Made by a program: the position numbers and the translations under genes. Below the pieces are notes generated by a model. The model made no database searches, had not been told where the DNA came from, and worked only from the letters and a program-made list of their open reading frames with translations. This document shows, in pieces, positions 33 through 28,400 of a stretch of 28,400 bases of DNA. Within the stretch, counting starts at the first letter, position 1. The number at the start of each line of letters is the position of its first letter. The stretch covers positions 1 to 28,400 of the forward strand of contig CAXBQP010000039.1 in assembly GCA_963978095.1 (NCBI GenBank). Direction: 5' to 3'. This DNA is from an uncultured bacterium. Its GTDB lineage: Bacteria; Gemmatimonadota; Gemmatimonadetes; Gemmatimonadales; Gemmatimonadaceae.

Positions 33-33
33 G

Positions 34-7171: not shown

Positions 7172-7786
7172 TCAGCCCCTGGCCGCCGCGTAGCGCGTGG
7201 CCACCTCGCCCCAGTTCACCACGTTCCACCACGCCCCGATGTAGTCCGGGCGGCGGTTCTGGTACTTGAGGTAGTAGGCGTGCTCCCAGACGTCGAGTCC
7301 GAGGATCGCATGCCGCCCTTCCATGAGTGGGTTGTCCTGATTCGGCGAGCTCTCGATGCTGAGCTTCCCCGCGGCGTCGCTCACGAGCCACGCCCAGCCG
7401 GACCCGAAGCGCCCGACGCCCGCGGCCGCGAACTGCTCACGGAACTTCGCAAAGTCACCCGACAGTGCGGTGATGGCGGCACCGAGCGCGCCCGAGGGCT
7501 CGCCGCCGGCGTTCGGCGCCATGATCTGCCAGAAGAGCGAGTGATTCCAATGTCCGCCGCCGTTGTTGCGCACCGCGCCACGCACCGACTCCGGCACCTT
7601 CGCGATGTTGCGGCAGAGATCGTCGAGGCTCCACGAGGCGAGCTCGGGGGCCTTCTCGATCGCGGCATTCAGGTTGTTGACGTACGCCTGATGATGCTTG
7701 CCGTGATGGATCTGCATCGTCTGCGTGTCGATGTGCGGCTCGAGCGCATCGTGTGCGAACGGGAGGGCGGGAAGGGTGTGGGCCAT
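7172..7786 (-). CDS. sodA: Superoxide dismutase, Fe/Mn family (Mn-type signature)
   Basis: [23 protein letters not shown] (GG typical of Mn enzymes), SPNQDNP and DVWEHAYYL. The start MAHTLPALP at 7786 has a GGAG RBS. Confidence 0.93.
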
Positions 7787-7883
7787 TGGAGTTCTCCGAA
7801 GTGTGGTCGCTGTATCGAATATACGGTCCGGGGGTGCGCTCCGGTTCCCGTTCAGCGCGCCGGCCGCGCGCACCGCGGGGTGC

Positions 7884-10150: not shown

Positions 10151-10160
10151 GAATCGGCGC

Positions 10161-13100: not shown

Positions 13101-13220
13101 GCGAAGATGGTGAAGGACGAGCGGGCCTACCATGTGTTCGAAGAGCTGAACACCTACACGGCGGTCGTCTACTTGCAGAAGGTCACTCATCCGTCGGCGT
13201 CCGCGCCGGCGAAGGCGTAA
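10161..13220 (+). CDS. actB: Alternative complex III subunit ActB (Tat lipoprotein; molybdopterin-oxidoreductase-like domain fused to Fe-S domain)
   Basis: Tat motif RREFLK followed by lipobox MVGC. GRAIKAEGNPEHP and ANKPWLQELPDP motifs. C-terminal Fe-S motifs CTGCSACVTAC, CQHCGNAPCEPVCP, CVGTRYCSNNCP (3Fe-4S type) and CSFC...CAQACP. Confidence 0.93.
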   Translation: MSQDVTDTTPTDGVKRREFLKVLGASGAAATMVGCSSDKVEKLIPYVVSPDNTVPGVSTYYATTCRECAAGCGLLVETRDGRAIKAEGNPEHPVNHGALCARGQAGLQGLYNPDRFRSPMMRQGDKLVPTTWDNAIKTLQTKLGEAKSKGTAKDAVFINQHEQGSFPAFLDQWLAGYGMPGAISYDAEAPLGALAANKAAYGASYPKLEFSAAKLVVSFGADFLDGWGMGVTHQIDFADARAKLDGGPRAVYVGPRRSLTGLNSDSWIPVRPGSSAMVAQALAASVGGKGGISLKQAADAAGISVASLEALASELKSVKPSLLIAGGDGADSTETAAAVAELNKALGNVGVTVKPSEGYNTYDGVASHAAVRDAAARMAAGKVSVAFVRGANPAHTMAGATKFADAFAKAGFKVSFSSFPDATTELCDLVLPDHHSLESWGDAETVKGMLSLQQPVMDPVFDTRQTADVLIAVAKGDPSMASKMPADYRAFIASRIGGNAGLTAALPSGIAKGSALPHPAAKAVASAHGDGGAKGGEYFLHVYHSPVLGDGRGANKPWLQELPDPVNKIAWQTVIELHPETAKKLNIEEGDHATVTTASGSVTAPVYLYIGLRPDTIAVQAGRGHTAYGRYANGCGVNAMSLLPSVEGGASGAVVLSGSKASVAKASGSSRLVTTEGSGRQHGRGIARALTVADLMAGKINEEKEAFVGQAKVGFLPGLRSPVANDAQGELGDPKSKDKGQYDPNHWSGVAKRRWAMTIDLARCTGCSACVTACYSENNIPTVGASHQGAQVMPDRTGFGANITRSREMAWIRLERYFEIDREPKDVAWNPDFETRVVPMMCQHCGNAPCEPVCPVYATYHSPDGLNVQVYNRCVGTRYCSNNCPYKVRYFNWFGYGEPNRAQYAFPEPLHWQLNPDVTVRGKGVMEKCSFCVQRIKEAENRATLEKREILPDEFTTACAQACPSRAIIFGDAADDRWTVAKMVKDERAYHVFEELNTYTAVVYLQKVTHPSASAPAKA

Positions 13221-13233
13221 GGGGGGCGCGACG

Positions 13234-14640
<1,407 letters not shown>

Positions 14641-14641
14641 C

Positions 14642-15145
14642 ATGAAGCAAGGCATGCTGGGCGCCTTCCGCGAGCTCGACGCCACCTGTGCGGCGATCGA
14701 GGAGCTCAAGAAGAAGAAGGTGGGCGAGGTCACGGTCTTCACCCCGACTCCGCGCCACGAGATCGAACACGCGATGCATTCGCCGATGAGCAAGGTCCGC
14801 CAGTTCACGCTGGTCGGCGCGCTCTCCGGGGCCTGCTTCGGCTACTGGATCGCGATCTGGAGCTCGGAGTACTGGCCCCTGGTCGTGGGTGGCAAGGCCA
14901 TTTCCACCTGGATCCCGTATACGATTTTCGGATTCGAAGTGATGGTGCTCGTGGGCGCGCTGTCCACGGTGGCCGGCTTCTTCATCCTCTCGCGCATTCC
15001 ACGCCTGACGATGACGGTCGGTTATGACCCCCGGTTCAGTCACGGGGACTACGGCGTGTGGGTCAAGTGCGCGCCCGATCAGCTCAAGAACGCCGAAGAG
15101 ATTCTGCGCCGGAATGGCGCGGTGGAGGTGCGTGGTGATGAGTAA
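14642..15145 (+). CDS. actD: Alternative complex III subunit ActD (DUF3341)
   Basis: Two TM helices, WPLVVGGK and YDPRFS motifs, positioned after actC. ATG 14642 has a GGAGG RBS. Confidence 0.9.
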   Translation: MKQGMLGAFRELDATCAAIEELKKKKVGEVTVFTPTPRHEIEHAMHSPMSKVRQFTLVGALSGACFGYWIAIWSSEYWPLVVGGKAISTWIPYTIFGFEVMVLVGALSTVAGFFILSRIPRLTMTVGYDPRFSHGDYGVWVKCAPDQLKNAEEILRRNGAVEVRGDE

Positions 15146-15860
15146 CAGGATCGCGCGCCGCCTGGCGCTCGTGGTGCTGCCCTTGGCGTTGGGCGCCTGC
15201 GACTGGTTCACCGACTTCAAGCAGCAGCCGTCGGTCGGCACCTGGCAGGAGTTCAACGACAGCACGGCGCTCAAGGGGTTCCGCGGTCAGCCGTCGCACT
15301 CGGTCGGCACCAACGGCACGCTCGCGCCCGGGTATGGGGTCAGCTATCAGCCGTTGCCGCAGACCATCGACTCGCTAGCCGGGATCGCGAATCCGACCAA
15401 GCCCGACGCCCGGTCGCTGCTGAACGGCCGCAAGTACTACTCGATCAACTGCGCCGTCTGCCATGGTGCCGCCGGTGATGCCAAGAGCACGCTCGCGGCC
15501 ATCAACTATGGGTTTGCGCCGAGCCTCTTGACCGATCAGGCCAAGGGACGCAGCGATGGCTACATCTGGGGGATGATGCGCAATGGTCGCGGCGTCATGC
15601 CCTCGGCCAACCGCATCGAAGAGGCGGAGCGCTGGGACGTGATCAACTACGTCCGCGGTCTCCAGGGCCGGTATCCGGTCGACACCGGGGCGGTGGGTCG
15701 CCCCGGCGAGACCGGCGATCTGCTCCCGGGCTATACCAAGCTTGGTCCGACCGTGCCGTCGGCGTATTTCCATCCGAATGTGAAGCCGCGTGAAGCCAAG
15801 GGCGAAGCCCACGGCGAAGGGGCGGCGACTGAAACCAAGAAGCCGGAGGGGCTGGAATGA
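15138..15860 (+). CDS. actE: Alternative complex III monoheme cytochrome c lipoprotein ActE
   Basis: Lipobox LALGAC, a single CAVCH, the GRGVMPS distal Met motif and ERWDVINYVRGLQ. Confidence 0.9.
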   Translation: MSNRIARRLALVVLPLALGACDWFTDFKQQPSVGTWQEFNDSTALKGFRGQPSHSVGTNGTLAPGYGVSYQPLPQTIDSLAGIANPTKPDARSLLNGRKYYSINCAVCHGAAGDAKSTLAAINYGFAPSLLTDQAKGRSDGYIWGMMRNGRGVMPSANRIEEAERWDVINYVRGLQGRYPVDTGAVGRPGETGDLLPGYTKLGPTVPSAYFHPNVKPREAKGEAHGEGAATETKKPEGLE

Positions 15861-17191
15861 GCGGCCATCAAGATACCGGGTACGCGCGCGAACGCGTCGT
15901 CGCTGCGGGCGCGCGCCAGCTCCCGACCTGGATTCGGCAGGTCTCGATCGGCCTCGCCGTGCTGGGCCTCGCCATCTTCCTGTTCGGCGTGTTGTCCGGT
16001 GACCACAAGACGCGCGCCTGGCACGCGTTCCAGGTGAACTGGCTGTTCTTCAGCACGATTTCGTCGGCCGCCGTGATGTTCGTGGCGGTGCAGCGGATCA
16101 CCACCGCGCGCTGGTCGCGCGGCATTGCCCGCATCATGGAAGGGTTCGGGGCGTTCCTCCCTGTGGCCTTCATCGGGCTGGTGGTGCTCGTGCTCTTCGG
16201 GGGCGAGCACGCGTATCCGTGGTGGAACGAACTCGGGGAGCTGAAGCACGAGAAGCAGGTGTATCTCGGACACACCTTCTTCACCCTGCGATCGATTCTC
16301 GCCTTCGCGGCGATCATGGTCATGCAGCTCTGGTATCTCTGGACCTCGGTCCGGTTGGACGTCGGAGTGAGCCCGGAGGGCGGGGCAGGCTGGGCCGCTG
16401 GAATCCGGGCCAGGATGCGCGCCAGCTTCGGCGAAGAGCGTCGCGAACTGCACAGCACCCACTCGCTGCAGGGCAAGCTCGCGGTCATCATGGCGCTGGT
16501 CTTCGGTTTCGGCTGGTGCATCCTCGCGTGGGACCAGTCGATGTCGCTCGACCCGCACTTCTTCAGCACGATGTACGGCTGGCAGGTGTTCATGGGCGGC
16601 TGGCTCGTCTCGCTCATGGTGACGTCGGTCCTCGTCCGCTTCTGGCAGGATTATCTCGGTGCGGACGACCTGATCACCGACTCGCACTTCCATGACATCG
16701 GCAAGCTCTGCTTTGCCTTCACGGCATTCTGGGGGTACCTGACCTTCAGCCAGTTCCTGGTGATCTGGTACGGCAACATGTTCGAGGAAACCCACTTCTT
16801 CACCCTTCGTCTGAGCGGTGTGTGGAAGAACTGGACCCTCGCGGCTGCGTGGCTGACTTTCGCGCTCCCCTTCTTCGGGCTCCTGTCCGTCAAGGCCAAG
16901 ATGTGGCGGCCGACGATGTTCTTCTTCGCCGCCTGCAGCTTCACGGGACTGTGGATCGCCCGCTATGTCGAGGTGTACCCCTCGTCGTACGGCGTCGCGT
17001 CGAACGCGCCATTCAGCTTTTGGGAAGTCGGGATCTTCTTGGGTTTCCTGGGGGCTTGGGGCTTCTGCTACTCGAGCTTCATGGATGCCTTCCCGAAGTT
17101 CCGCGTGTTCCTGCTGACGTCGCCGTACCGCGACGAAGTGCAGATTCCCGTGGATCCGGTCACGATGGAGCCGCTGCCGGCCCACGAGTAA
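15857..17191 (+). CDS. actF: Alternative complex III membrane subunit ActF
   Basis: Polytopic membrane protein with ARWS, DQSMSLDPHFFSTMYG, HFHDIGKL and FSQFLVIWYGNMFEET motifs. ATGA overlap with actE. Confidence 0.92.
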   Translation: MSGHQDTGYARERVVAAGARQLPTWIRQVSIGLAVLGLAIFLFGVLSGDHKTRAWHAFQVNWLFFSTISSAAVMFVAVQRITTARWSRGIARIMEGFGAFLPVAFIGLVVLVLFGGEHAYPWWNELGELKHEKQVYLGHTFFTLRSILAFAAIMVMQLWYLWTSVRLDVGVSPEGGAGWAAGIRARMRASFGEERRELHSTHSLQGKLAVIMALVFGFGWCILAWDQSMSLDPHFFSTMYGWQVFMGGWLVSLMVTSVLVRFWQDYLGADDLITDSHFHDIGKLCFAFTAFWGYLTFSQFLVIWYGNMFEETHFFTLRLSGVWKNWTLAAAWLTFALPFFGLLSVKAKMWRPTMFFFAACSFTGLWIARYVEVYPSSYGVASNAPFSFWEVGIFLGFLGAWGFCYSSFMDAFPKFRVFLLTSPYRDEVQIPVDPVTMEPLPAHE

Positions 17192-17433: not shown

Positions 17434-17501
17434 TTCATCACCCCTGTGTGTGCCACGATGTCGCTCCGGCATGCCAAGTTCGGTTGGTCGCCCGACACGC
17501 C

Positions 17502-18206
17502 ATGACGCACCCGACGGAGGACGTCTTCGCGATCGAGGCGCAGGGCATCGCCCGGCGCTTCGGTACTCGGTGGATCCTGCGCGGGGTCTCGATGCACGTG
17601 CGACCCGGTGAAGTGGTCGGACTGTTGGGATCCAACGGCTGCGGCAAGAGTACGTTGCTGCGCATGTTGGCCACCCTGCTCAAGCCGACGGCCGGCGCGG
17701 CGGCCATTTGCGGGCATGATGTCGTTGCCGAAGCCGACGAGGTGCGTCGAAACATCGGATTCCTGGCCCACGCCCCGGGGCTTTACGACGACTTGTCGGC
17801 GCGAGAGAACCTGGAGTTCGCCGCCGAGATGATCGGCGGGGGCCACCAGGACATCGACGCGTTGATCGAGCGCGTGAACCTCTCGCATGTGCGGCACGAA
17901 CGCGTGCGCGGATTCTCGGCCGGCATGCAACGCCGCCTCGCGCTCTGCCGACTGATGCTCACCAATGCGCGGGTACTCCTCTTCGATGAGCCGTACAGCA
18001 ATCTCGATACCGACGGCATTCGGTTGATGAACAGCATCATCGCGGAAGCCGCACGCGACGGAGGGGCGGCGCTCGTGGTGCTGCACGAGCTCGCTCCCGC
18101 GGCGGGACTGTTGCACCGAACGGTGACGATCCGCGATGGCCGCGTGGCTGACCCGAGCGCCGCCAGCCCACAGGCCGCCTGCACCGGCGCCGAGGAGGTC
18201 GCGTGA
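17502..18206 (+). CDS. ccmA: Heme ABC exporter ATP-binding protein CcmA
   Basis: GSNGCGKST, FSAGMQRRLAL and LFDEPYSNLD, at the head of the ccm operon. The start could be as far upstream as 17448. Confidence 0.9.
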   Translation: MTHPTEDVFAIEAQGIARRFGTRWILRGVSMHVRPGEVVGLLGSNGCGKSTLLRMLATLLKPTAGAAAICGHDVVAEADEVRRNIGFLAHAPGLYDDLSARENLEFAAEMIGGGHQDIDALIERVNLSHVRHERVRGFSAGMQRRLALCRLMLTNARVLLFDEPYSNLDTDGIRLMNSIIAEAARDGGAALVVLHELAPAAGLLHRTVTIRDGRVADPSAASPQAACTGAEEVA

Positions 18207-18904
18207 CGCGCGTCCTTCAACCGGGTGGGGACACCTGGCGCCGCATCCGGGCGATCGCGTGGAAGGACTTGACCACCGAGCGTCGCTCCAAAGCCGGATT
18301 CAATGCCGTCGTGTCGCTCGGCATCACCATCCTCGTGCTGTTCGGATTCGCGCTCGGTCCGGATGCGCAGGTGCTGCGGGATGCGGCCCCAGGCGCCCTC
18401 TGGCTCGCGGTGCTCTTTGCCGGCGTGCTGGCCTTCAACCGCAGCTATCAGGTGGAACTGGATACCGGTGCGCTGGAGCCGCTGCTGCTCTACCCCGGGG
18501 CACGATGGACCATCTTCACCGGCAAGCTGCTGGCGAACATGCTCTTCGTCGGTCTGCTGCTCGTGATCGTCGTGCTGGCCGGCATGGTGCTCTTTGCCGT
18601 GAAGGTCCCCGAGGCGTGGCCCACGGTGATTGCGGTGCTGGCGCTTGGCGCGATCGGACTCGTGACGCTGGGTACCTTTTACGCCTCGATGGCGAGCCGC
18701 AGCAGGGCCCGTGAAGTGTTGCTGCCGCTGCTGCTCTTTCCGATGCTCGTGCCGGTATTGCTGGCCGCCATGCAGGCGAGCAAGGCCCTGATCGGTGCCG
18801 ACATGATGCTGGAAGCCGGCGCGTGGATCAAGATGTTGATCGCCTACGACCTCATCTTCCTGTTGGCCACGCATCTCGCGTTCGAACATGTGATCGAGGC
18901 ATGA
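18203..18904 (+). CDS. ccmB: Heme exporter protein CcmB
   Basis: AWKDLTTERRS, PGALWLAVLFAG, ELDTGALEPLLL and LLPLLLFPMLVPVLL motifs. Confidence 0.92.
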   Translation: MTRVLQPGGDTWRRIRAIAWKDLTTERRSKAGFNAVVSLGITILVLFGFALGPDAQVLRDAAPGALWLAVLFAGVLAFNRSYQVELDTGALEPLLLYPGARWTIFTGKLLANMLFVGLLLVIVVLAGMVLFAVKVPEAWPTVIAVLALGAIGLVTLGTFYASMASRSRAREVLLPLLLFPMLVPVLLAAMQASKALIGADMMLEAGAWIKMLIAYDLIFLLATHLAFEHVIEA

Positions 18905-18911
18905 TTCCCTG

Positions 18912-19625
18912 ATGACTGCTCCCGTTGCTCCCCCCGCGATCCAGGTACCCAAAGCCGGCGCATGGCCGGTGTTCGGATGGTTCACGCTGGCGTTCATGGT
19001 GGCCGCGCAGGGGTACGCGATCGTCACCTCGCCCGCCGACCGCGACATGGGCGATCTGCAGAAGATCCTCTACGTGCACGTGCCGGCGTCGTGGATCATG
19101 TCGATCACGTTCGCGCTGGTGTTCGTCTACAGCCTCTTGTACCTGTGGAAGGGGAGGGAGAGCCACGATCTGCTGGCGGCGTCGTCGGCCGAAGTCGGCG
19201 CGACCTTCGTCGGACTCACCCTCGTGCAGGGGATGATCTGGGGGAAGCCGACCTGGGGGGTCTGGTGGACCTGGGATGCACGCTTGACGTCGACACTCGT
19301 GCTCTTCCTGGTGTTCGTGGGCTATCTTGCGCTTCGGGCGTTCATCGACGAACCGCAGCGTCGCGGCCAGTGGAGCGCGGCGGTCGGGGTGCTCGGTTCC
19401 ATCAACGTCCCGATCGTCTGGATGTCCGTGCGGTGGTGGCGGACGTTGCACCAGATGCAATCCACGCCGCAAACCATGGATCCCGCCTATCGGAACGGCC
19501 TGCTCGTGAACTTTCTGGCATTCACCCTGCTGGCGGTGTATCTGATCCGGCGCCGGTATGAGGCGTCGATGACGGCGCGTGCCGCCGAGTTGGCGTCGCA
19601 GGCCATGGCGCTGGGAGGACACTGA
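18912..19625 (+). CDS. ccmC: Heme exporter protein CcmC
   Basis: YVHVP, tryptophan-rich WGKPTWGVWWTWDARLT and WWRTLHQ. Confidence 0.95.
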   Translation: MTAPVAPPAIQVPKAGAWPVFGWFTLAFMVAAQGYAIVTSPADRDMGDLQKILYVHVPASWIMSITFALVFVYSLLYLWKGRESHDLLAASSAEVGATFVGLTLVQGMIWGKPTWGVWWTWDARLTSTLVLFLVFVGYLALRAFIDEPQRRGQWSAAVGVLGSINVPIVWMSVRWWRTLHQMQSTPQTMDPAYRNGLLVNFLAFTLLAVYLIRRRYEASMTARAAELASQAMALGGH

Positions 19626-19626
19626 G

Positions 19627-19782
19627 ATGCCGCCGATGGCGGGACCGAACAACTGGAGTTTCGTGATCGCGGCATACGCGATCACCTGGATCACGATCAT
19701 CGGGTACTGGGTGCACGTGCACCGGGCGCTGCGCGACGCGCAGCACGATTTGGATGCGGCGAAGGCCGCAGGAGGGCAGTGA
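19627..19782 (+). CDS. ccmD: Heme exporter protein CcmD
   Basis: A 51-aa ORF with a GGAGG RBS between ccmC and ccmE. It has a WSFVIAAYAIT hydrophobic N-terminus and a charged tail. Confidence 0.8.
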   Translation: MPPMAGPNNWSFVIAAYAITWITIIGYWVHVHRALRDAQHDLDAAKAAGGQ

Positions 19783-20243
19783 TGGCCGCAGTGAAGTCGC
19801 GCCACCTGGCGATCCTCGCCGTGGTCGGTATCCTCGGCACGTTCGCGTGGCTGCTGTACGGCGGACTCGACAAGAACGTCGTGTACTTCTGGACGCCCAA
19901 GGAGCTGATCGCCAAGGGCGATGCCGGATTCGAGAAACCTGTGCGCCTCGGCGGGCAGGTGAAGCCCGGCACCGTCGTCTGGGACGACAAGACGCTCGAT
20001 CTGCGGTTCGTGATCACGGACGTCGATGGCGTGAGTGACATCGTGGTGCACTCCAAGGGGGCGCCCCCGCAGATGTTCCGCGACGCGATGGGGGTGGTGG
20101 TCGAGGGACGGTATGGGCGCGACAAGGTCTTCCAGTCCTCGAGCCTGATGGTCAAGCACTCCAACGAGTACAAGGCCCCCAAGCCGGGTCAGAGCGGGAA
20201 GGACATGGTGAAGACGCTGATGCAGGGGAACAGCACCACGTGA
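19782..20243 (+). CDS. ccmE: Heme chaperone CcmE
   Basis: N-terminal TM, VYFWTP, VRLGGQVKPG, PQMFRDAMGVVVEG and the heme-binding KHSNEY (HxxxY). GTG 19779 is an alternative start. Confidence 0.93.
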   Translation: MAAVKSRHLAILAVVGILGTFAWLLYGGLDKNVVYFWTPKELIAKGDAGFEKPVRLGGQVKPGTVVWDDKTLDLRFVITDVDGVSDIVVHSKGAPPQMFRDAMGVVVEGRYGRDKVFQSSSLMVKHSNEYKAPKPGQSGKDMVKTLMQGNSTT

Positions 20244-22240
20244 CCGGAACTCTGGCGCACGGCGCGATTCTCGTCTCCCTCGCGGTGGTGGCGTTCGGGA
20301 TGTGCTTCATCCCGTTCGCGATCTCGCGCGATCGTCGGGACTGGGTGGCACTCGCCTATTCGGCGGTCTACACGAACTTCCTGCTGATCACCATCGCCAC
20401 GGTCGCGATGGTGTGGGCGCTCGTCGCGCACGACTTCTCGGTGTCGTATGTGGCGCAGGTCGGGAGCAAAGCCACGCCCGTGTTCTACACGATCATTTCA
20501 CTGTGGGGCGCGCTGGAAGGCTCGATCCTCTTTTGGGCCTGGGTGCTGGCGATGTATGCGGCGGTCGTCGTGTGGATCAATGCGCAGCGCCCGGGGAACT
20601 TGGTCCCGTACGCGGCAACGGCCTTGCTCGGCATCTCCCTGTTCTTCGGCATCCTGCTGGTGGGGCCGGCGGATCCGTTCAAGCCGGTCTATCCGGTGCC
20701 GCTCGATGGACCTGGGCCGAACCCGCTCCTGCAGAACCACATCCTGATGGCCGTGCATCCCCCGCTGCTGTATCTCGGCTACGTCGGGATGGCCGTACCG
20801 TTTGCGTTCGCGGTCGGGGCGATGCTGTCCGGCGAGGTGCTGACCGACGACTGGATCACGATCACCCGACGGTGGACCTTGGCGTCATGGGGACTGCTGT
20901 CGGCGGCGATCATCGCCGGCATGTGGTGGTCATACGAAGTGCTCGGATGGGGCGGGTACTGGGCGTGGGATCCCGTCGAGAACGCTTCGTTCATGCCGTG
21001 GCTGACCGCGACCGCCTTCTTGCACTCGGTGATGGTCCAGGAGCGCCGCGGCATGCTCCGACTCTGGAACCTGAATCTCGTCGTCGGCACGTTCGTTCTC
21101 ACGATCCTCGGGACGTTCCTGACCCGGTCCGGGATCATCTCGTCGGTGCACGCATTCACGACGGGGACCATCGGCTACTACTTTTTGGCGTTCATTGCGG
21201 TGACGCTGCTCGCGGCACTGGCCCTCGTCGCCGGGACATCGGGACGCCTCACGTCGGAGAATCGCTTCGACTCGGCCGCATCGCGAGAGACGGTCTTCCT
21301 GTTGAACAACCTGTTCCTCACCGCGTTCATGTTCACGGTGCTGCTGGGCACCCTGTTCCCGCTCGTGGCGGAATCGGTGCGCGGCGTGAAGGTCAGCGTT
21401 GGCGAGCCGTTCTTCAATCGCATGTCGTTGCCGATGATCGTGGCGCTGCTGTTTCTGATGGGGGTTGGCCCTGCGATGCCGTGGAAGCGGATCGGGATGA
21501 CGGAGCTGAAGGCCAAGTTGCGCGCGCCGCTCGTGGGGGCCATCGTGATGCTGGTCGTCGCGATCGCGGTTGGCGCGCGCAATGTCTACGCGCTGGTGAC
21601 CTTCGCGTTCGTCGGATTCTCCGGCGCTGCCAACAAGTTCGAGTTCTGGTACGGCATGCGGGCGCGCCACCGCGCGCACGGTGAGAACTATCTCATCGCG
21701 CTGTTGCGCCTGATGGCGGGGAACCGTCGCCGCTACGGCGGCTATGTTGCGCATCTGGGCATCCTCACGGTCGCCTTGGGGATCGCGGCATCGAGCACGT
21801 TCCGGACGGAGACCGAGGCCACGCTGAAGCCCGGCGACTCCATGACCGTCTCCGGGCATACCGTACGCCTCAAGCAGGTGTGGGGACGCGAAGAGGTGCA
21901 GCGTTCGGTGATCGGCGCGACGTTGGAAATCGTGCAGAACGGTGCCGTGACCGGAACGATCGAGCCGAAGATGAATTTCTATCCGACCTCCCAGCAGCCG
22001 GTGCCGACGCCGCAGGTCAACAGCTCGTTCGCCGGCGATTTGTACGCGAACCTTCAGGCGTTCCGCCCGGATGGATCGAGTGCCACCGTGCGGTTGATTT
22101 ATGAGCCGCTGGTGCCGTGGATCTGGTTCGGTGGCATGATCGTGGTGTTCGGCTCCATCCTGTCGATGCTTCCCGCTCGGACGCGGGGCGTCGACGCGGT
22201 CGCGACCGCTGGCGCCGCGAGCGCGGAAGTCGCCGCATGA
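20240..22240 (+). CDS. ccmF: Cytochrome c heme lyase CcmF
   Basis: WGALEGSILFW, NPLLQ, HPPLLYLGYVG, WGGYWAWDPVENASFMPWL and GTFLTRSGIISSVHAF motifs. Confidence 0.96.
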   Translation: MTGTLAHGAILVSLAVVAFGMCFIPFAISRDRRDWVALAYSAVYTNFLLITIATVAMVWALVAHDFSVSYVAQVGSKATPVFYTIISLWGALEGSILFWAWVLAMYAAVVVWINAQRPGNLVPYAATALLGISLFFGILLVGPADPFKPVYPVPLDGPGPNPLLQNHILMAVHPPLLYLGYVGMAVPFAFAVGAMLSGEVLTDDWITITRRWTLASWGLLSAAIIAGMWWSYEVLGWGGYWAWDPVENASFMPWLTATAFLHSVMVQERRGMLRLWNLNLVVGTFVLTILGTFLTRSGIISSVHAFTTGTIGYYFLAFIAVTLLAALALVAGTSGRLTSENRFDSAASRETVFLLNNLFLTAFMFTVLLGTLFPLVAESVRGVKVSVGEPFFNRMSLPMIVALLFLMGVGPAMPWKRIGMTELKAKLRAPLVGAIVMLVVAIAVGARNVYALVTFAFVGFSGAANKFEFWYGMRARHRAHGENYLIALLRLMAGNRRRYGGYVAHLGILTVALGIAASSTFRTETEATLKPGDSMTVSGHTVRLKQVWGREEVQRSVIGATLEIVQNGAVTGTIEPKMNFYPTSQQPVPTPQVNSSFAGDLYANLQAFRPDGSSATVRLIYEPLVPWIWFGGMIVVFGSILSMLPARTRGVDAVATAGAASAEVAA

Positions 22241-22857
22241 ATCGCACCCGCGCCGTCATCGGCATGCTGATCGCGATCCCCGTGATCTGGCTGTTCGCGA
22301 GAAGCATGGGACGAGACCCCCGCGATCTTGGGCCGTCGCCGTTGGCGGGTCGGGACGCCCCGGGATTCCGGTTGGCGGTCTTCGCGCCGGGACAAGCGGC
22401 GCTGTCGCGTCCCGTGGGAGACACCGTGCGACTGGACGATCTCAAGGGACAGGTCGTGGTGCTGAACTTCTGGGCATCGTGGTGCCTCGCCTGTCGCGAC
22501 GAGCACGAGACCCTGTCCGAGGTTGCGCGGAACTACATCGGAAAGCCGGTCCACTTCCTGGGGGTCCTGTACAACGACGATGCCCTCTCCGGCAACAAGT
22601 GGATCGCCGAGATGGGCGGTCAGAGTTATCCCTCGGTCCTCGATCCCGGGGCGCGTACCGCCATCGACTACGGGTTGTATGGAGTGCCCGAGACCTTTTT
22701 CCTGGATGCCGACGGGCGTGTCGCATTCAAGAATACCGGTCCTGTGACCGCCACGGTGCTGCATCGGGTGGTGGATTCCCTCATGGCCGCGGCGGCCACC
22801 GTGGGCGTCCCCAAACATGGCGCGCAAGCGGCCCCGGCCGGCGCAGGCCCCAAGTGA
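22237..22857 (+). CDS. ccmG: Thiol:disulfide oxidoreductase CcmG/DsbE (TlpA/ResA-like)
   Basis: N-terminal TM, VVLNFWASWCLAC and YGVPETFFLD. ATGA overlap with ccmF. Confidence 0.9.
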   Translation: MNRTRAVIGMLIAIPVIWLFARSMGRDPRDLGPSPLAGRDAPGFRLAVFAPGQAALSRPVGDTVRLDDLKGQVVVLNFWASWCLACRDEHETLSEVARNYIGKPVHFLGVLYNDDALSGNKWIAEMGGQSYPSVLDPGARTAIDYGLYGVPETFFLDADGRVAFKNTGPVTATVLHRVVDSLMAAAATVGVPKHGAQAAPAGAGPK

Positions 22858-23369
22858 TGCGTACGCTGGTGCGAGTCGTCGTGCTCTCGCTCGCGCTGGT
22901 GTCACCGCTGCGCGCCCAAGCGGCGACCGCTGCAACCCGAGACGCGCAGGTCGTCACGCCGGAAGGATTACGTCCGTCGGCGAAATCCCAGGCCACCGAC
23001 CCCGCGCTCGAAGCGCGCACCAGCGAGGTCGCGTCCGGGCTTCGGTGCCCCGTCTGCCAGGGGCTCTCCATCCAGGATTCCCCCTCGGAGCTCGCGCAGC
23101 AGATGCGGAGTCTCGTGCGTGACCAGCTCGCCGCGGGGAAAACCGGCGAGGAGGTCCGCGCCTATTTCATCTCCAAGTACGGCGAGTGGATTCTGCTCGA
23201 ACCCAAAGCGTCCGGGTTCAACGCCCTCGTGTACGTACTGCCGGTGGCGCTGGTGTTGGGTGGACTCCTGTTCATCCTGACCCTCGTCCGCCGCTGGACC
23301 GTCGTCCCCACCGACGGCGACCTCCCCTCGGGCGTCGAGCGCCCTGATCCCGACACCGACGACGTGTAA
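22857..23369 (+). CDS. ccmH: Cytochrome c biogenesis protein CcmH
   Basis: Signal peptide, LRCPVCQGLSIQDS, YFISKYGEWILLEP and a C-terminal TM. The ATG overlaps the ccmG stop (TGATG). Confidence 0.93.
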   Translation: MRTLVRVVVLSLALVSPLRAQAATAATRDAQVVTPEGLRPSAKSQATDPALEARTSEVASGLRCPVCQGLSIQDSPSELAQQMRSLVRDQLAAGKTGEEVRAYFISKYGEWILLEPKASGFNALVYVLPVALVLGGLLFILTLVRRWTVVPTDGDLPSGVERPDPDTDDV

Positions 23370-23375
23370 GTGGAA

Positions 23376-23403
23376 GGATGCCTGACCGGTCAGTCAGGCA
23401 TCC
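23376..23403. terminator. 11-bp inverted repeat after ccmH (terminator-like hairpin or operator)
   Basis: GGATGCCTGAC-cggtca-GTCAGGCATCC, 7 nt after the ccmH stop. There is no immediate U-tract. Confidence 0.5.
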
Positions 23404-23523
23404 GGATACCAAGTTTCAGGTTTCTCCCTACGGGTTATTTCGGCGTGCGCCGTAATGTTCTCCTCGGTAGGAGCCGGAGCTTCGCATCACTTCCATGTTG
23501 GGCCCTCTGGAGGACGAGATCTT

Positions 23524-24921
23524 ATGAGGCGCTCCATTGTTCAGACCATCACGACTCTCGCCGTCGTCGCCGCCGCGCTGAGCGTCGGATGCACCACGGA
23601 GAAGATCGTCTATCGCAGCGGTTCGAACTTCGTGGCCCCCCCGGGCTCCGCGAAGAGCTTTGTGGGATACAGCGACGAGACCAGCAAGCAGACGGTGTGC
23701 GGCGGTTGCCACGTTGACGCGCAGTCGCGCTGGGTGACCACCAAGCACGCGAGCGCGTGGAATACGCTGTCGACCAGTGGGTCCATGCAGGGCTATTGCC
23801 AGGGATGCCATACGGTCGGCGCCTACGGCAACGCGGCGACCGACACCACGGTCGGGTGGAACGGGTCGAAGGATGCGCGTTATCACGACGTGCAGTGCGA
23901 GAGCTGCCACGGCGCCGGCCTGACGCATGCCAGCAGCCCCACCTCGAGCAACCGCCCGCTCGCCAGCATCAAGGCCGACACGAATCTGACGACCGGCTGC
24001 GGCGAGTGCCACAGTGGCACGCACAACCCTTTCGTCCAGGAATGGCGCCTCTCGGGTCATTCCAAGACCGCGACGCTCACCGCCACGATCAAAACGAACA
24101 CCTACTGCCAGACCTGCCACACGGCGCAGGGCGCGCTGGTGGCATGGGGAGTGAGCAGCAACTATGCGGAGAAGGCCGACACGGGCTCCGCCCTGCTGTC
24201 GACCGTGTGCGCGGTCTGCCATGCTCCGCACGGCTCGGCCAACGCCAAGCAGCTCAGGTTCCCCGTCACCACGGCCAACACCGAAACGAATCTGTGCATG
24301 AAGTGCCACCAGCGCCGGTCGAACGTCGACATCACCACGACCAGCGGCGCGCACTCCCCCGAAGGTCCCACCCTGCTCGGCACGGCCGGTTGGTTCCCCC
24401 CGGGCATGAGCCCGGCCGACTCGCTGATCGGTTCGCACGGGAACACGGACCGCAATCCGAACTTGTGCGCGACGTGCCATGTGAGCCGCAACACCATCAC
24501 GGACAAGGCGACCGGCAAGTTCGTCTTCCAGAGCACCGGACACCGGTTCCTCGCGACCCCGTGCGTCGACGCGAACGGTCAGCCGACGGAGAGCCAGACG
24601 TGCACGGTGTCCGCGCAGACCTTCCGCAGTTGCGTTGCCTCGGGGTGCCACGCGAGTGAGACGGCGGCACGCAGCGCATTTGCGACGGCGGATGCGCGCA
24701 TCGCCACGTTGGCCACGACGCTCAGTACGCTGGTGACGCAGGCAAAGGCCAAGAAGCCGACGGATTTCGTCGCGTCGGCACCGATGAACACAGGCCGCGG
24801 TTCTGCCTTCAACGTCACCTTGGCACAAAAGGCGGGAGCGTCGGTGCACAACCCGTTCTTGATCGAGCAGTTGCTCCTCGGAAGCATCAAGCAGATCAAG
24901 ATCGACTACGCGCTCCCGTAA
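23524..24921 (+). CDS. Multiheme c-type cytochrome lipoprotein (8 CxxCH + 1 CX4CH; NrfA/c552-like C-terminus)
   Basis: GGAGG RBS and lipobox LSVGC. Motifs CGGCH, CQGCH, CESCH, CGECH, CQTCH, CAVCH, CMKCH, CATCH and CVASGCH. The C-terminal helical region contains GASVHNP. Confidence 0.88.
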   Translation: MRRSIVQTITTLAVVAAALSVGCTTEKIVYRSGSNFVAPPGSAKSFVGYSDETSKQTVCGGCHVDAQSRWVTTKHASAWNTLSTSGSMQGYCQGCHTVGAYGNAATDTTVGWNGSKDARYHDVQCESCHGAGLTHASSPTSSNRPLASIKADTNLTTGCGECHSGTHNPFVQEWRLSGHSKTATLTATIKTNTYCQTCHTAQGALVAWGVSSNYAEKADTGSALLSTVCAVCHAPHGSANAKQLRFPVTTANTETNLCMKCHQRRSNVDITTTSGAHSPEGPTLLGTAGWFPPGMSPADSLIGSHGNTDRNPNLCATCHVSRNTITDKATGKFVFQSTGHRFLATPCVDANGQPTESQTCTVSAQTFRSCVASGCHASETAARSAFATADARIATLATTLSTLVTQAKAKKPTDFVASAPMNTGRGSAFNVTLAQKAGASVHNPFLIEQLLLGSIKQIKIDYALP

Positions 24922-24924
24922 CCG

Positions 24925-26823
24925 TTGTCCTCTCTGGTGCCAGTTCTGCTGCACGTTGCGGGTTCGGGGGCCGCGCCTGACGGGGCGCTGTCCACCGAAC
25001 CCGCGGCGCGTTTGTTCCGGTTCCTGTTCTCCGTGGTCCCGCAGTGGGTCCAACTCTCCGGCATTCTGATCGGCGTTCCCGTCGGACTGATCGTGGCCTG
25101 GTTGCTGTGGAAGAACCGCCTGGCCGTGCTGGCCTGGTTCCGCGCCCGATCGCGCGGTTTCCAGATCGCCCTCGTCAGCGCCTTCGCCATCGTGTCGCTG
25201 AGTGGCACCGGGACCGGATTGGTCGGTTATCACTACATGATGCACAACAACGACTTCTGCCAGTCGTGCCACATCATGGATACCGCCTGGAACCGCTTCC
25301 AAGTCTCCGCCCACAAGTCGCTGACCTGTCACGAATGCCATCGTCAGCCGATCTGGGTGAGTTCGATCGAGCTTTATTGGTGGGTGACGGAACGGCGCAT
25401 GGCCGTCCCGGCGCACGACAAAGTCCCAACCAAAGTGTGTGCCGAGTGCCACATGCAGGGGGGCGGGGATTCGTCGCGCAAGAACATCATGCTCACGGCT
25501 GGACATGTCGTGCACATGAAGTCCGACTCCGCCGCGCTCAAGCACGTGCAATGCACCACCTGCCACGGACGGGATTTCCATAAATTCACGCCCAACAACG
25601 CGACTTGCGCCCAATCGGGCTGTCACACCGACAAGAAGGTGAAACTCGGCGCGATGTCGCAGGCGGGCTTCCTGCACTGCGTCGTGTGCCATTCCTTCCG
25701 CAATCGCGTGAAGGACACGACGGACGTCAAGCAGGCCTCGAAGTCGATGTCCCCGACCAGCATCCAGTGCTACGGCTGTCACGAGATGACGGATCGGATG
25801 AAGAAGTTCGACCTGACGTCGGACCCGCATCGCGGGGGCTGCGGCACGTGTCACAACCCGCACCGGCAGGAAACGCCCAAGGAAGCGCTGAAGAGTTGCG
25901 CGACCGCGCAGTGCCACGGATCGACCGATACGCTCACGGCGTTCCATCGAGGGCTGGGGGCGCACGCGCTCGACGAATGCAGTGCCTGTCACAAGCCGCA
26001 CAGCTGGAAGGTCAAGGGCAGCGAGTGCCTGGCGTGCCACAAGAACATCTACGCCGACCGTCCCTCACTCCGGAAAGCGACGGCTCCGCCACCCCTCTGG
26101 GATCCCCCGGTGAAACACCCGCAGGCGTGGGAGCCGACCACGCCCCCCGGCGGGCCGTCAGCGTCCGACGCGGACGACGGAGTGTCCGCAGCGGTCGCGA
26201 TCGATGAGCGCGTCGCGGCGCGGGCGACGCACGACGCGGTGTCCCGCGATTCGACGCGCTTTCCGCATGCGCGACACAAGACAGTGCCTTGCGCCGATTG
26301 CCACGCGACCTCCAGTACGCATGGCGGCGTGAAGGTCACGCGGCCGGACGGATGCCGCAACTGTCATCACGCATCCTCCCAGAAGGCCTCGTGTGCCAGT
26401 TGCCACCAACAAGGGCCGAGTGCGGCGCGCACGGTCGACGTGAAGATGACCGTCACGGCGCGGAGGATTCCGCAGGTGGAACGAGCGCTCACCTTCGCGC
26501 ATGCACGCCACGCGGCACTCGCCTGTACGCAGTGCCACGATGACTCCCCGACTCGCGCACCGAAGGCGACCTGCCTCGGCTGTCACGCCGATCATCATCA
26601 GCCCAAGCGAGAATGCGCCGCTTGTCACACGGGCGCCAAGACCGGACATGACCGGGCCGCGCACGACGCGTGCGCGTCCTGTCATACGGCCCCGTGGGTG
26701 GCGCAGCTCCCGTCGTCTCGCACGCTCTGCCTCGCATGCCACGACACGCAGCGCACGCATGAGCCGGGACACGAGTGCTCAATCTGTCATCTGGTGAGTC
26801 CCCATGCCGGAGGACGCCAATGA
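24925..26823 (+). CDS. Membrane-anchored NapC/NirT-like multiheme cytochrome c with 20 heme motifs (18 CxxCH + 2 CX4CH)
   Basis: Two N-terminal hydrophobic segments followed by the NapC/NrfH-type DFCQSCHIM...SAH...CHECH. It has 11 heme motifs, then a Pro-rich linker, then 9 more. The start codon is uncertain (TTG 24925 or GTG 24937). Confidence 0.85.
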   Translation: MSSLVPVLLHVAGSGAAPDGALSTEPAARLFRFLFSVVPQWVQLSGILIGVPVGLIVAWLLWKNRLAVLAWFRARSRGFQIALVSAFAIVSLSGTGTGLVGYHYMMHNNDFCQSCHIMDTAWNRFQVSAHKSLTCHECHRQPIWVSSIELYWWVTERRMAVPAHDKVPTKVCAECHMQGGGDSSRKNIMLTAGHVVHMKSDSAALKHVQCTTCHGRDFHKFTPNNATCAQSGCHTDKKVKLGAMSQAGFLHCVVCHSFRNRVKDTTDVKQASKSMSPTSIQCYGCHEMTDRMKKFDLTSDPHRGGCGTCHNPHRQETPKEALKSCATAQCHGSTDTLTAFHRGLGAHALDECSACHKPHSWKVKGSECLACHKNIYADRPSLRKATAPPPLWDPPVKHPQAWEPTTPPGGPSASDADDGVSAAVAIDERVAARATHDAVSRDSTRFPHARHKTVPCADCHATSSTHGGVKVTRPDGCRNCHHASSQKASCASCHQQGPSAARTVDVKMTVTARRIPQVERALTFAHARHAALACTQCHDDSPTRAPKATCLGCHADHHQPKRECAACHTGAKTGHDRAAHDACASCHTAPWVAQLPSSRTLCLACHDTQRTHEPGHECSICHLVSPHAGGRQ

Positions 26824-28304
26824 GGGACCGCTCGCGCCGGAGCGCCGCCCTGATCGGCGCTCTGATGGCGGTGACCGCGGCGCCGCCGGTGGCGATGGCG
26901 CAGGGGCTCCGCATCACCGGCGTCACCAGCATGCAGTACGTGCAGCTGCGTCCCATGGCGCGTGATTCCACCTTCGCGCCGTATGACCCGAATGCTGAGG
27001 AATGGCGCCCCCGCCCCGACGGCGTGCTCATGCACTGCGGAAGTTCCAACTACTGCTATTGGTACGCGTCGCAAGCCGTCGCCAGCGCGGCTCCGGTGCT
27101 CCAAGATCTCTCGCTCACGGCGTGGGGAGGGGCGCAGGGGCTCAGCGTCCACGCGGACGTTCGCGCGCGCGCGCCACTCATCGCCAAGGGCTTCACCTAC
27201 CCGCGCTCCGACGACGCGGTCTCGTTGCTTGACGCCTACGTGGAGGTACAACGCTCGTGGGGACGTGCGCGCTTCGGTCGACAGTGGGTCATCGGCGGAC
27301 TCGGGTCCTACGACTTCGATGGCGCCAGTGCGCTCGTGCGCCGCGGACGCTGGAGCTACGAGGGGTGGGCGGGGCGCGCGTTGATCGGAGGGCTCAATGA
27401 TTCGCATGCGAGCGGGGCGCTCGCCACGCTCGAGAACTTTCCGCCGGATCAGGACGGATGGATCCTCGGCGCGCGGACGCGGCTGCGGACCGCCGCGGGT
27501 TCGAGTCTCGCCGCGATGTATCAGCGCGTGCTCATCGCCGATCGGAGCGGCGTCTATTCGGAGCGCGCCGCCCTCGATGCGACCACGCGCTGGTCCGCGC
27601 TCGCGCTCGACGGCGCCGCAGCCTACGACTTCGCGACCGGCGTCTGGAACGAAGCGCGCCTTCGACTGCATACCATGCGCGCGGGTCCCGCGGCCATGTC
27701 GGCGGAGCTGCGTCACCACGTGCCATTCTTCGAGCTCTGGACCATTTGGGGCGCCTTCAATCCCGTGGGTTACAACGAAGCGCGGAGTACCGTCGATTGG
27801 CATCCTGCGGGAAGCCATGTGACGCTCTCCGCACATGGCGCCTACCGCAAATACGAGGATGCCGATGCCGGGGTGAGTCTTCGCACCGATGGCTGGCGTG
27901 CCGGCGCCGATCTTGGCTGGGCGGGCAGTGGATCCTTTTCGGCGCTCGGCACTTACGAAGTGACCATCGGCAACGGGGCGTCGCGTAACGATGCGAGTGC
28001 AGCGCTCCGCTATACGAGGGGCGACGCGCTCGCCGTCGGACTCGACCTGTCCGCGCTGCAGAACATCTACGAGTTTCGGGTTGGCACCGGTCGCGTGTTC
28101 GGAGTCGCGGTCAGTGTGGCCAGGCGGATCGTTGACGATCTACGTCTCTCGGGTGACGTCGGTATTTATCGCCACCAACAGCTGCTGGGCGCCCCAGGGC
28201 CCGACTGGAATCAGCAACGCGCATCGCTCCGGTTGGAGTGGTCGGTCGGACGCGATCCCGGGTTGGCCTCCACCGGAAGGCCGGGTGTCACGGTGACGCC
28301 GTGA
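26820..28304 (+). CDS. Predicted outer-membrane beta-barrel protein (putative porin of a porin-cytochrome complex)
   Basis: Sec signal peptide ending AMA|QG and no CxxCH. Rich in Gly/Ala/Trp/Tyr/Arg with many alternating amphipathic strands (AYVEV, RARFGRQW, WSYEGWAG, LRLSGDVGIY, RASLRLEWSVG). ATGA overlap with the 20-heme gene. Confidence 0.7.
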   Translation: MRDRSRRSAALIGALMAVTAAPPVAMAQGLRITGVTSMQYVQLRPMARDSTFAPYDPNAEEWRPRPDGVLMHCGSSNYCYWYASQAVASAAPVLQDLSLTAWGGAQGLSVHADVRARAPLIAKGFTYPRSDDAVSLLDAYVEVQRSWGRARFGRQWVIGGLGSYDFDGASALVRRGRWSYEGWAGRALIGGLNDSHASGALATLENFPPDQDGWILGARTRLRTAAGSSLAAMYQRVLIADRSGVYSERAALDATTRWSALALDGAAAYDFATGVWNEARLRLHTMRAGPAAMSAELRHHVPFFELWTIWGAFNPVGYNEARSTVDWHPAGSHVTLSAHGAYRKYEDADAGVSLRTDGWRAGADLGWAGSGSFSALGTYEVTIGNGASRNDASAALRYTRGDALAVGLDLSALQNIYEFRVGTGRVFGVAVSVARRIVDDLRLSGDVGIYRHQQLLGAPGPDWNQQRASLRLEWSVGRDPGLASTGRPGVTVTP

Positions 28305-28400
28305 CCAGCAGCGCTCCGCGACTTCTGCTGCTCCTGACCGCGCTGCTGTCGCCGCTCACTGTCCGCGCACAGCAACGCGACGGGTTCCCCCATGACGCGC
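28301..28400 (+). CDS. Secreted protein, probable multiheme cytochrome c (3'-partial; not in supplied ORF track)
   Basis: GTG 28301 overlaps the barrel stop (GTGA). It translates as MTSSAPRLLLLLTALLSPLTVRA|QQRDGFPHDA(H?), a signal peptide followed by the FxHxxH-type motif that precedes heme sites in c3/c7-type cytochromes. No CxxCH is visible inside the window. Confidence 0.6.
   Translation, partial: MTSSAPRLLLLLTALLSPLTVRAQQRDGFPHDA

Follow-up and report, generated by a model that had tools for sequence, protein, structure and literature searches.

A four-gene cassette of Gemmatimonadota predicted to encode a porin-cytochrome type electron conduit from new protein families

Results

Four coupled genes for multiheme cytochromes and an outer-membrane barrel

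The DNA analyzed here, referred to as the window, is the whole 28.4-kb contig CAXBQP010000039.1 (C39) of a 2.98-Mb, 91%-complete genome of an uncultured bacterium of the Gemmatimonadaceae. From position 23524 to the end of the window, four coupled genes, A to D, lie on the plus strand (Table 1) and encode a lipoprotein cytochrome, a membrane-anchored cytochrome, a heme-free outer-membrane beta-barrel and a secreted multiheme cytochrome. An earlier note on this DNA had read this cassette as a candidate conduit for extracellular electron transfer (EET), and all its sequence statements on the tight coupling of the genes hold: A and B are separated by a gap of 3 nt, B and C share an ATGA overlap, and C and D a GTGA overlap. 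As the start of gene A, the ATG at 23524 is preferred over an upstream ATG at 23455, because a GGAGGA sequence lies 9 nt 5' of the former.

Only five open reading frames (ORFs) with at least three CxxCH motifs exist in the entire 2.98-Mb genome, with A, B and D accounting for three of them. The other two encode an ActA-like five-heme protein, also located in the window, and a four-heme protein beside pufLM. The clustering of hemes at this locus is therefore far beyond chance, the three cytochromes together holding about 45 heme sites.

The cassette is preceded by genes for cytochrome c maturation system I (ccm), and the stem-loop that directly follows ccmH has a predicted folding energy of -26.5 kcal/mol (z -3.69), a value equalled by 0 of 200 shuffled sequences. 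A scan of positions 23200-23700 for a consensus promoter and terminator found neither, the stem-loop being without a T run. It is possible that the stem-loop acts as a terminator or processing site dividing the ccm genes from the cytochrome cluster.

Table 1. Features of the cassette and of the adjoining ccm genes in the window
Feature	Positions	Strand	Remarks
Gene A, nine-heme lipoprotein cytochrome, 465 aa	23524..24921	+	8 CxxCH + 1 CxxxxCH; ATG start
Gene B, membrane-anchored 20-heme cytochrome, 632 aa	24925..26823	+	18 CxxCH + 2 CxxxxCH; TTG start
NrfH/NapC/NirT-like module of B, residues 52-261	25078..25707	+	Second membrane helix, CQSCHIM, next hemes
C-terminal c3-like module of B with about 10 hemes, residues ~443-624	26251..26796	+	
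Gene C, heme-free outer-membrane beta-barrel, 494 aa	26820..28304	+	ATG start; zero heme motifs
Invariant loop of C, residues 302-318, PFFELWTIWGAF	27723..27773	+	
Gene D, first 33 codons	28301..28400	+	GTG start; signal peptide then QQRDGFPHDA; cut by contig end
ccmA, ccmB, ccmC, ccmE, ccmF, ccmG, ccmH (cytochrome c maturation system I)	17448..23369	+	Pfam ABC_tran, CcmB, Cytochrom_C_asm, CcmE, Redoxin, CcmH
Perfect 11-bp stem-loop directly after the ccmH stop	23376..23403	+	Inverted repeat + RNA fold

C is predicted to be a wide, plug-less barrel of a distinct family

The earlier note had seen beta-barrel character in the product of gene C, and a heme-free barrel is now predicted with high confidence. 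The AlphaFold2 model, obtained with an alignment of 86 homologues (A1), has a mean pLDDT of 86.2 and a pTM of 0.80 and consists almost entirely of beta strands. DSSP assigned 22 long wall strands and a short hairpin within a 45-residue excursion, giving a strand count of 22-24; the barrel takes up the whole of residues 28-478, and a plug domain is absent from C. Cys73 and Cys79, located in this long first excursion, are nearly invariant in the family (invariant in a 62-row alignment); a disulfide between them, within an extracellular loop, is probable.

A Foldseek search with the C model returned outer-membrane barrels only, with the FimD usher barrels as best matches (TMq 0.47-0.49) and MtrB (6r2q_B) at rank 29 (TMq 0.40, 10% identity). 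In VIA-align comparisons of residues 28-478, the 22-strand barrels of TonB-dependent receptors were recovered with Z scores of up to 20.6 (rmsd 4.3, 358 aligned residues), the 24-strand usher barrels FimD and PapC reached Z scores of 19.2 and 19.0, respectively, and MtrB was absent from the 50 best rows. In size, C is thus comparable to TonB-receptor and usher barrels and appears wide enough to host a cytochrome, the earlier note having named a narrow barrel as an outcome that would count against its reading. Since the barrel is both wide and plug-less, something would be needed in its lumen; the reference barrels carry plugs of their own.

None of the 86 family members matches an NCBIfam model at E ≤ 0.01, and a weak match to Pfam Porin_4 was found in 3 of the 86; an assignment of C itself to Porin_4 was rejected, its score lying below the cut-off (21.3 vs 27 bits). 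The 30 clusters nearest to C in the ESM Atlas are all unnamed and mostly from Gemmatimonadota. When a C profile was searched against 1.84 billion representative proteins, 614 were found at E ≤ 0.001 and 207 at E ≤ 1e-30. Judged by these profiles, the C family is compact and distinct and lies outside the curated families. Because the barrel has no Pfam or NCBIfam model, annotation pipelines cannot name it. Among its invariant columns are P302, F304, T308, W310, F313 and P315, all within the loop listed in Table 1, of which residues 308-312 are modeled with low pLDDT when C is folded alone.

The C-terminal third of D is predicted inside the barrel

The interaction between C and D was modeled with the proteins of the closest relative, locus L002, using mature C (residues 36-497) and D (residues 20-487) and alignments of 62 rows each that list the same loci in the same order. 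Residue numbers of L002 C are those of the window C plus 8. Three co-fold runs gave ipSAE values of 0.85, 0.84 and 0.86, compared with 0.00 for the best of three controls; the runs share at least 79% of their contacts, and the partner pLDDT is at least 72. The mark used for calibration is reached by 116 of 157 solved complexes and by 2 of 215 mismatched pairs, a calibration that is roughly valid here, given the custom alignments.

On the D side, all confident contacts lie within residues 318-477, the part with the final seven heme motifs. The C side is contacted at every second residue (i, i+2) in nearly all strands, for example at 119/121/123, 417/419/421/423, 434/436/438 and 454/456/458/460. 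Such alternating contacts correspond to inward-facing residues of the barrel wall and therefore place the C-terminal third of D, in the model, inside the lumen of C. The pairs with the lowest predicted error join D residues 428-443 and 465-470 to the invariant loop of C (L002 residues 310-326) and to other long loops. The invariant loop, whose own lowest-error contacts are with D residues 428-443 and 469-470, is predicted to fold into the lumen and to grip D. In the usual topology of outer-membrane barrels, the termini and short turns are periplasmic and the long loops lie outside. With C oriented in this way, the C-terminal end of D would be found at the outer mouth of the barrel and its nine N-terminal hemes in the periplasm. 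These predictions, computed without hemes, support an insertion of D into the C barrel.

Gene D continues on a second contig

D had been described in the earlier note as a secreted protein starting with FPHDA, in agreement with the signal peptide and mature N-terminus given in Table 1. By tblastn of the genome with the D protein of L002, we located the remainder of the gene on a second contig (G000:C42, positions 27522-26254, minus strand), where it encodes 414 aa with 15 CxxCH motifs. Residues 50-487 of L002 D match C42 at 71% identity, and L002 D is 75% identical to the D fragment of this genome. The L002 protein is secreted, has about 487 aa and carries 16 CxxCH motifs, a number also found in 61 of 64 loci with near full-length C and D. 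The possibility raised in the earlier note that this last ORF might lack heme motifs, to the detriment of a conduit, has thereby fallen away. With 468 mature residues for 16 hemes, D has 29 residues per heme, and an alignment of 62 D sequences shows that all 16 motifs and 16 non-motif His are conserved. D matches the Pfam c7, c3 and MtrC-domain models, and no NCBIfam model was found over its cut-off.

No exact terminal overlap joins C39 and C42. The final ~250 bases of C42 (L082 11748-12000) are unrelated to D and visibly lower in G+C. One public metagenome contig (run X1, record 2, depth 4.4) departs from C42 at L082:11747 and runs on for 864 letters; its first 30 letters, translated by hand in the D frame, agree with L002 D residues 44-52 at 8 of 9 residues. 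The foreign end of C42 is carried by a different public contig (record 3) and, read by eye on the opposite strand, may represent a flagellar-motor MotA-type fragment. Because the public contigs split at this point, we regard the end of C42 as a chimeric assembly join sharing about 20 bases. On the thin evidence of the one departing contig of depth 4.4, the break in D is probably an assembly artefact, and D is probably intact in this genome. Downstream of D, C42 carries genes for a peroxiredoxin, an NtrC-like regulator, an OmpR-type regulator and a kinase; these were ruled out as parts of the module, as they are kept only in the closest relative L002.

B combines an NrfH-like module with a putative periplasmic heme wire

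The membrane-anchored 20-heme protein described in the earlier note was recovered as such, with two hydrophobic helices (residues ~33-64 and 81-101) that both precede the first heme. B matches Pfam c3/c7 domains. A profile of 38 N-terminal modules of B-type proteins (A5) matches NrfH of Desulfovibrio vulgaris (2j7a_C) with an E-value of 1.7e-11 over the helix and hemes 1-3, which supports the earlier claim that the operon brings its own quinol-interacting subunit. As in NrfH, NapC and NirT, an N-terminal helix (residues 81-101) is followed by CxxCHxM as the first motif (CQSCHIM in B), and this motif is found in 37 of 37 long B-type proteins. In NrfH, the Met-bearing CxxCHxM motif belongs to the quinol-side heme. 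An N-terminal quinol dehydrogenase module of the NrfH type is thus supported at the level of sequence profiles. B differs from NrfH in its additional upstream helix and 16 further hemes, and no NrfA partner accompanies it. We propose that B is a fusion of an NrfH-like module and a putative periplasmic heme wire.

The C-terminal module of B is a separate gene in other loci

Short forms of B (227-320 aa, 9+1 or 8+1 motifs) align to B residues ~388-630, and in 19 loci the C-terminal module stands as a separate gene (~280 aa, 10 hemes) directly before C. Some of the loci with a short B carry the NrfH-like part elsewhere (L046, L060, L078). He et al. (2017, PMC5566968) describe a low number of residues per heme as characteristic of MtrA-like wires, and by this measure both D (29) and B (about 26 residues per heme) would be wire-like.

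A resembles cell-surface cytochromes of the OcwA type

A was recovered as the nine-heme lipoprotein of the earlier note, with a signal peptide ending in Cys23. This cysteine is invariant in 59 of 59 aligned sequences, and all 58 homologues of A from the related loci have a cysteine after a hydrophobic leader. A has 49 residues per heme and nine conserved non-motif His. The AlphaFold2 model of A (pLDDT 89.1) gave two significant structural matches only: OcwA (6i5b; E 5.8e-7, TMq 0.49, 18% identity over 433 columns) and, second, the S-layer undecaheme cytochrome of Carboxydothermus ferrireducens (6qvm; E 1.1e-5), both of which are cell-surface cytochromes according to their PDB titles. OcwA was also the best match in a phmmer search of A against solved structures (E 1.6e-6), and octaheme and pentaheme nitrite reductases followed in the structural search with E-values of 0.14-0.3 and TMq values of 0.2-0.4. 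A accordingly has the nine hemes and the fold of an OcwA/NrfA-type scaffold, at a modest level of similarity. It contains no CxxCK motif and has one conserved distal His per heme, and is thus without an obvious open catalytic heme; one non-motif His for each heme, nine in A and 16 in D, fits bis-His electron-transfer hemes.

Folds similar to A in the ESM Atlas (TM 0.66-0.72) include a cluster of Ignavibacteriota in which 98% of the members carry Por_Secre_tail, a type-IX secretion tail. We mention this observation as a lead only.

C and D form the fixed core of a widespread cassette

Relatives of C are encoded at 107 places in contigs of a one-genome-per-species collection, of which the best 80, all from metagenome-assembled genomes (MAGs), were kept. 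By title, these 80 loci belong to Gemmatimonadaceae, Gemmatimonadales, Longimicrobiales, unclassified bacteria and one member of the Krumholzibacteriota. The named relatives of C are hypothetical proteins of Gemmatimonadota MAGs, in line with the host phylum that the earlier note had thought probable. In an even sample of the phylum, the barrel family was present in 181 of 401 genomes and 80 of 147 genera; it is patchy in the family to which the window belongs (26/93) and common in the sister family (117/166).

Synteny was counted in the 79 of these best 80 loci that have a full-length C. Of the 73 loci in which 1.4 kb or more follow C, 70 have D directly behind it under a strict positional filter, and the remaining three (L044, L068, L077) have a D-like ORF there. 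In 40 of 64 loci, the stop of C and the start of D share 4 or 1 nt. Where 4 kb or more lie upstream of C (62 loci), A was present in 47 and B stood directly before C in 46 (27 long and 19 short forms); the order A-B-C was found in 40 and A-C without an intervening B in seven. C and D are the fixed core of the cassette, and A and B are frequent companions. The fetched stretch contained ccmF in 22 of 79 loci, and no chaperone gene was found in the cassette in the table of related loci.

In six loci (L050, L074, L060, L078, L052, L053), the cassette is duplicated or additional A- or B-like genes occur within 20 kb; L050 has a second B-C-D set on the other strand, and L074 has two sets along with three genes of the A type. 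In the most distant loci (L067, L069, L071, L072, L076, L080), C and D occur with a different membrane-anchored cytochrome of 17-24 CxxCH and one CxxxxCH motifs. The first motif of this protein is CxxCHxM; it is only 22-34% identical to B, and its gene lies some kb away or on the opposite strand.

Comparison with known electron conduits

As predicted here, the cassette follows the same logic as MtrCAB with CymA of Shewanella, and as MtoAB, PioAB and DmsEF, in that an inner-membrane quinol dehydrogenase of the NapC/NirT/NrfH type is combined with a thin wire of many hemes in a large outer-membrane barrel and, as the terminal partner, a lipoprotein cytochrome. In MtrA, the C-terminal heme faces outwards, and the co-fold similarly places the C-terminal end of D towards the loop side of the barrel. 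The parts themselves differ. The NCBIfam library, which we take to include an MtrB/PioB model, gave no match for any member of the C family, and C is thus not a sequence member of MtrB/PioB. The earlier note had judged the barrel shorter than MtrB, and indeed the 494 aa of C compare with 649 residues in the solved MtrB chain. The MtrB barrel has 26 strands, and C, with 22-24, stays below the 26 strands and ~650-700 residues of an MtrB-type protein. Compared with MtrCAB/CymA, the putative insert has 16 hemes instead of 10, another 16 hemes are joined to the quinol module, and the lipoprotein A has the OcwA fold, not that of MtrC.

Neither A nor D belongs to the decaheme MtrA/DmsE family: D has 16 motifs and no match, and A, with nine motifs, reaches 36.9 bits where the DmsE/MtrA model of NCBIfam requires 192.2. 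The earlier statement that MtrA-like spacing is absent from the operon needs to be qualified in one respect: A does show a heme spacing of about 33 residues across its first seven motifs, together with this sub-threshold match, although the family cut-off is missed by far. None of the four proteins reaches the curated cut-off of a characterized EET family, so that simple orthology to a known complex, which the earlier note had considered as a threat to novelty, is not what these models indicate.

OcwA has nine hemes, and OcwA of Thermincola potens (6I5B) and the Carboxydothermus protein (6QVM) are the best sequence and fold matches of A. Both are cell-wall proteins of Gram-positive bacteria and lack a barrel partner, whereas A is a diderm lipoprotein, and the similarity amounts to 18-20% identity and TMq values of 0.42-0.49.

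The Pcc systems of Geobacter (OmbB-OmaB-OmcB; Ext) consist of the same trio: a porin-like protein and two multiheme cytochromes, one of them periplasmic and the other a lipoprotein. In the window, barrel C adjoins the secreted multiheme protein D, which is the arrangement by which pcc clusters are operationally defined (Shi, 2014; He, 2017). The survey of Pcc clusters reports porins with 18-22 predicted trans-membrane motifs and periplasmic cytochromes with 5-14 hemes; it covers six phyla, and Gemmatimonadetes are named 0 times in its text (PMC4245776). The comparison with OmbB/OmaB/OmcB was made by these published numbers, from which the cassette differs.

Porin-cytochrome systems of Fe(II) oxidizers are built alike, according to the text of PMC5566968, which describes PCC3 and PCC4 as predicted-only clusters with heme-rich wires and an inner-membrane partner. 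That partner is a b-type protein with five helices, whereas B is an NrfH-like c-type cytochrome. PCC3 porins are given with up to 42 predicted strands (median 34) and 21 hemes, and the hosts of PCC3 and PCC4 belong for the most part to the Proteobacteria (PMC5566968).

New porin-cytochrome clusters are routinely flagged by gene adjacency in surveys (PMC5566968; PMC13264449), and in 2018 a putative 'mto-like' porin-cytochrome system was reported in a MAG classified as Gemmatimonas (PMC6137239). The phylum is also mentioned in generic FeGenie or PCC surveys (PMC8478452, PMC13264449, PMC11495043, PMC9671151). Our full-text search of the literature found no description of this cassette; supplements of surveys, which lay outside the search, may list such clusters. 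The proposal of an undescribed architecture made in the earlier note therefore stands in so far as the cassette itself is concerned, and has to be narrowed as regards the phylum, in which, given the system reported in PMC6137239, the porin-cytochrome idea is not wholly new. As a kind, such systems are known; new here are the barrel family, the putative 16-heme insert, the OcwA-type lipoprotein in a diderm and the fusion of a quinol dehydrogenase with a wire of its own.

Discussion

A candidate route for electrons across the cell envelope

Our results suggest, with a probability that we put at roughly 0.7, that the cassette codes for an electron conduit of the porin-cytochrome type that spans the cell envelope and is assembled from new protein families. 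The wire from the quinone pool to the cell surface that the earlier note envisaged is supported in silico by the predicted barrel fold, the co-fold of C and D, the relationships of B to NrfH and of A to OcwA, and the conserved gene order. In such a conduit, B would be located in the inner membrane, where its NrfH-like N-terminal module would exchange electrons with the (mena)quinol pool, and its further ~16 hemes would extend as a thin wire into the periplasm. D would pass through the plug-less barrel C in the outer membrane with its C-terminal third (about seven hemes), and its nine N-terminal hemes would hang into the periplasm towards B. The OcwA-like lipoprotein A, if exposed, would take or give electrons at the outer end. 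We infer the order B to D to A, the surface exposure of A and the direction of flow. We favor outward flow, in which electrons from quinol would reach Fe(III), Mn(IV), humics or further acceptors outside the cell, because NrfH/CymA-type modules oxidize menaquinol, a point of general knowledge only.

Several observations weigh against such a conduit. The co-fold was computed with the proteins of L002, whose C is 69% identical to that of the window, and without hemes, and it may partly reflect the model's memory of MtrAB (6R2Q). The A-B-C order is missing in 22 of the 62 informative loci, and in nine of the 62 neither A nor B lies directly upstream of C. Against the NCBIfam model of NrfH (TIGR03153), B scores 29.6 bits (E 5.9e-7), below the cut-off of 134.2, and no Pfam NapC/NirT match was found in B at E ≤ 0.1. 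A could face the periplasm instead of the outside. In this genome D is not whole, 33 codons being found on C39 and 414 aa on C42, and no RNA dataset is among the listed public holders of the cluster. Finally, an aerobe-like host with two heme-copper oxidases, alternative complex III (ACIII) and a photosynthetic reaction centre is atypical for a metal reducer.

Alternative functions of the cassette

A conduit of the same build could run in reverse, taking up electrons from Fe(II), Mn(II), reduced humics, minerals or other cells, as PioAB and MtoAB do, and feeding them into the quinone pool, the respiratory chain or the photosynthetic chain of the host. The direction is not fixed by sequence, the porin-cytochrome systems of Fe(II) oxidizers share this build (PMC5566968), and the host has pufL and pufM with an adjoining four-heme ORF, two heme-copper oxidases and, in the window, ACIII. 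The cassette is not tied to phototrophy, however: the barrel family is found in 6 of 21 sampled genomes with pufLM, compared with 181 of 401 overall, and an NrfH-type module together with an OcwA-like cytochrome is, as a matter of general knowledge, more typical of outward transfer. We therefore consider uptake as the principal function unlikely, if by far not negligible.

An improbable alternative is that A and B form a periplasmic NrfHA-like reductase that passes quinol electrons to a soluble compound, for instance nitrite, hydroxylamine, sulfite or tetrathionate, with C as an ordinary porin and D as a periplasmic electron store. The N-terminus of B does match the NrfH of an NrfHA complex, the weaker structural matches of A are octaheme and pentaheme nitrite reductases, and OcwA itself reportedly reduces nitrite and hydroxylamine in vitro, which counts for this alternative. 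A reductase of this kind is difficult to reconcile with A, in which CxxCK is absent and each heme has one conserved distal His, and with C, which at 22-24 strands and without a plug is far larger than a solute porin needs to be. In addition, D lies inside the barrel in the predicted complex, and the fixed gene pair is C-D, not A-B.

A role of C as an usher-like export or assembly pore that secretes D or A, for example as an extracellular cytochrome polymer, is very improbable: FimD and PapC are among its best structural matches, but TonB-receptor barrels match C equally well or better, so that the usher match reflects barrel size only, and C lacks the usher plug and the N- and C-terminal periplasmic domains, no chaperone gene accompanies it, and the tight predicted contact of its invariant loop with D suggests a stable complex.

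Possible significance of the conduit

Returning to a porin-cytochrome conduit as the preferred function, one extension of it can be put forward as a tentative and rather doubtful suggestion, namely that the cassette forms a self-sufficient 45-heme wire in which the 16-heme extension of B directly contacts the nine hemes of D in the periplasm, without a soluble shuttle, so that the hemes run unbroken between menaquinone pool and cell surface, and which in this host, with its reaction centre, works in both directions. It might then discharge surplus reducing power to extracellular acceptors such as humics or metal oxides when oxygen is scarce and take them up from the same materials in the light. 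Were such a bidirectional, shuttle-free wire to exist, a large part of the Gemmatimonadota (181 of the 401 sampled genomes) would be unrecognized electroactive bacteria.

The Gemmatimonadota count among the more common phyla of soils, sediments and fresh waters, but little is known of their physiology, and the few members in culture have been characterized as aerobic heterotrophs or phototrophs. If nearly half of the sampled genomes do encode such a conserved conduit across the envelope, many of these bacteria could give electrons to, or take them from, minerals, humic matter, electrodes or partner cells, and the part played by the phylum in the cycling of iron, manganese and carbon would have to be seen differently. 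For the field of EET, the cassette would represent a fourth, independently assembled solution and would offer concrete predicted complexes.

Host and genomic context

The genome encodes pufL and pufM at G000:C1:123336-126448 (Photo_RC 334 and 337 bits, over cut-off), followed by a 374-aa ORF with four CxxCH motifs, which is probably the reaction-centre cytochrome. None of the seven other sampled genomes of the same genus carries pufLM, and the genes may thus represent a recent gain or a binning issue in this host. Public DNA runs that hold the stretch are aquatic and freshwater metagenomes. Together with the two heme-copper oxidases, ACIII and pufLM, this suggests that the host is an aerobic, probably phototrophic freshwater bacterium. 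A link between the cassette and phototrophy was considered and was not seen when the lists of genomes with pufLM and with the barrel family were compared by eye.

An ACIII operon that looks complete occupies positions 9428-17191 (+) of the window and directly precedes the ccm genes, which makes the window a respiratory island. It encodes the five-heme ActA-like protein, ActB (1031 aa, with molybdopterin and 4Fe-4S domains), an NrfD-type ActC and ActD, as well as a monoheme ActE-like protein and a 444-aa ORF without a Pfam match. The remaining neighbors are ordinary: an Fe/Mn superoxide dismutase with an N-terminal extension (7172-7873, -), a biosynthetic arginine decarboxylase (5140-7113, +) and, at positions 1-2319 (+), a protein of the prolyl-oligopeptidase family that runs off the contig start.

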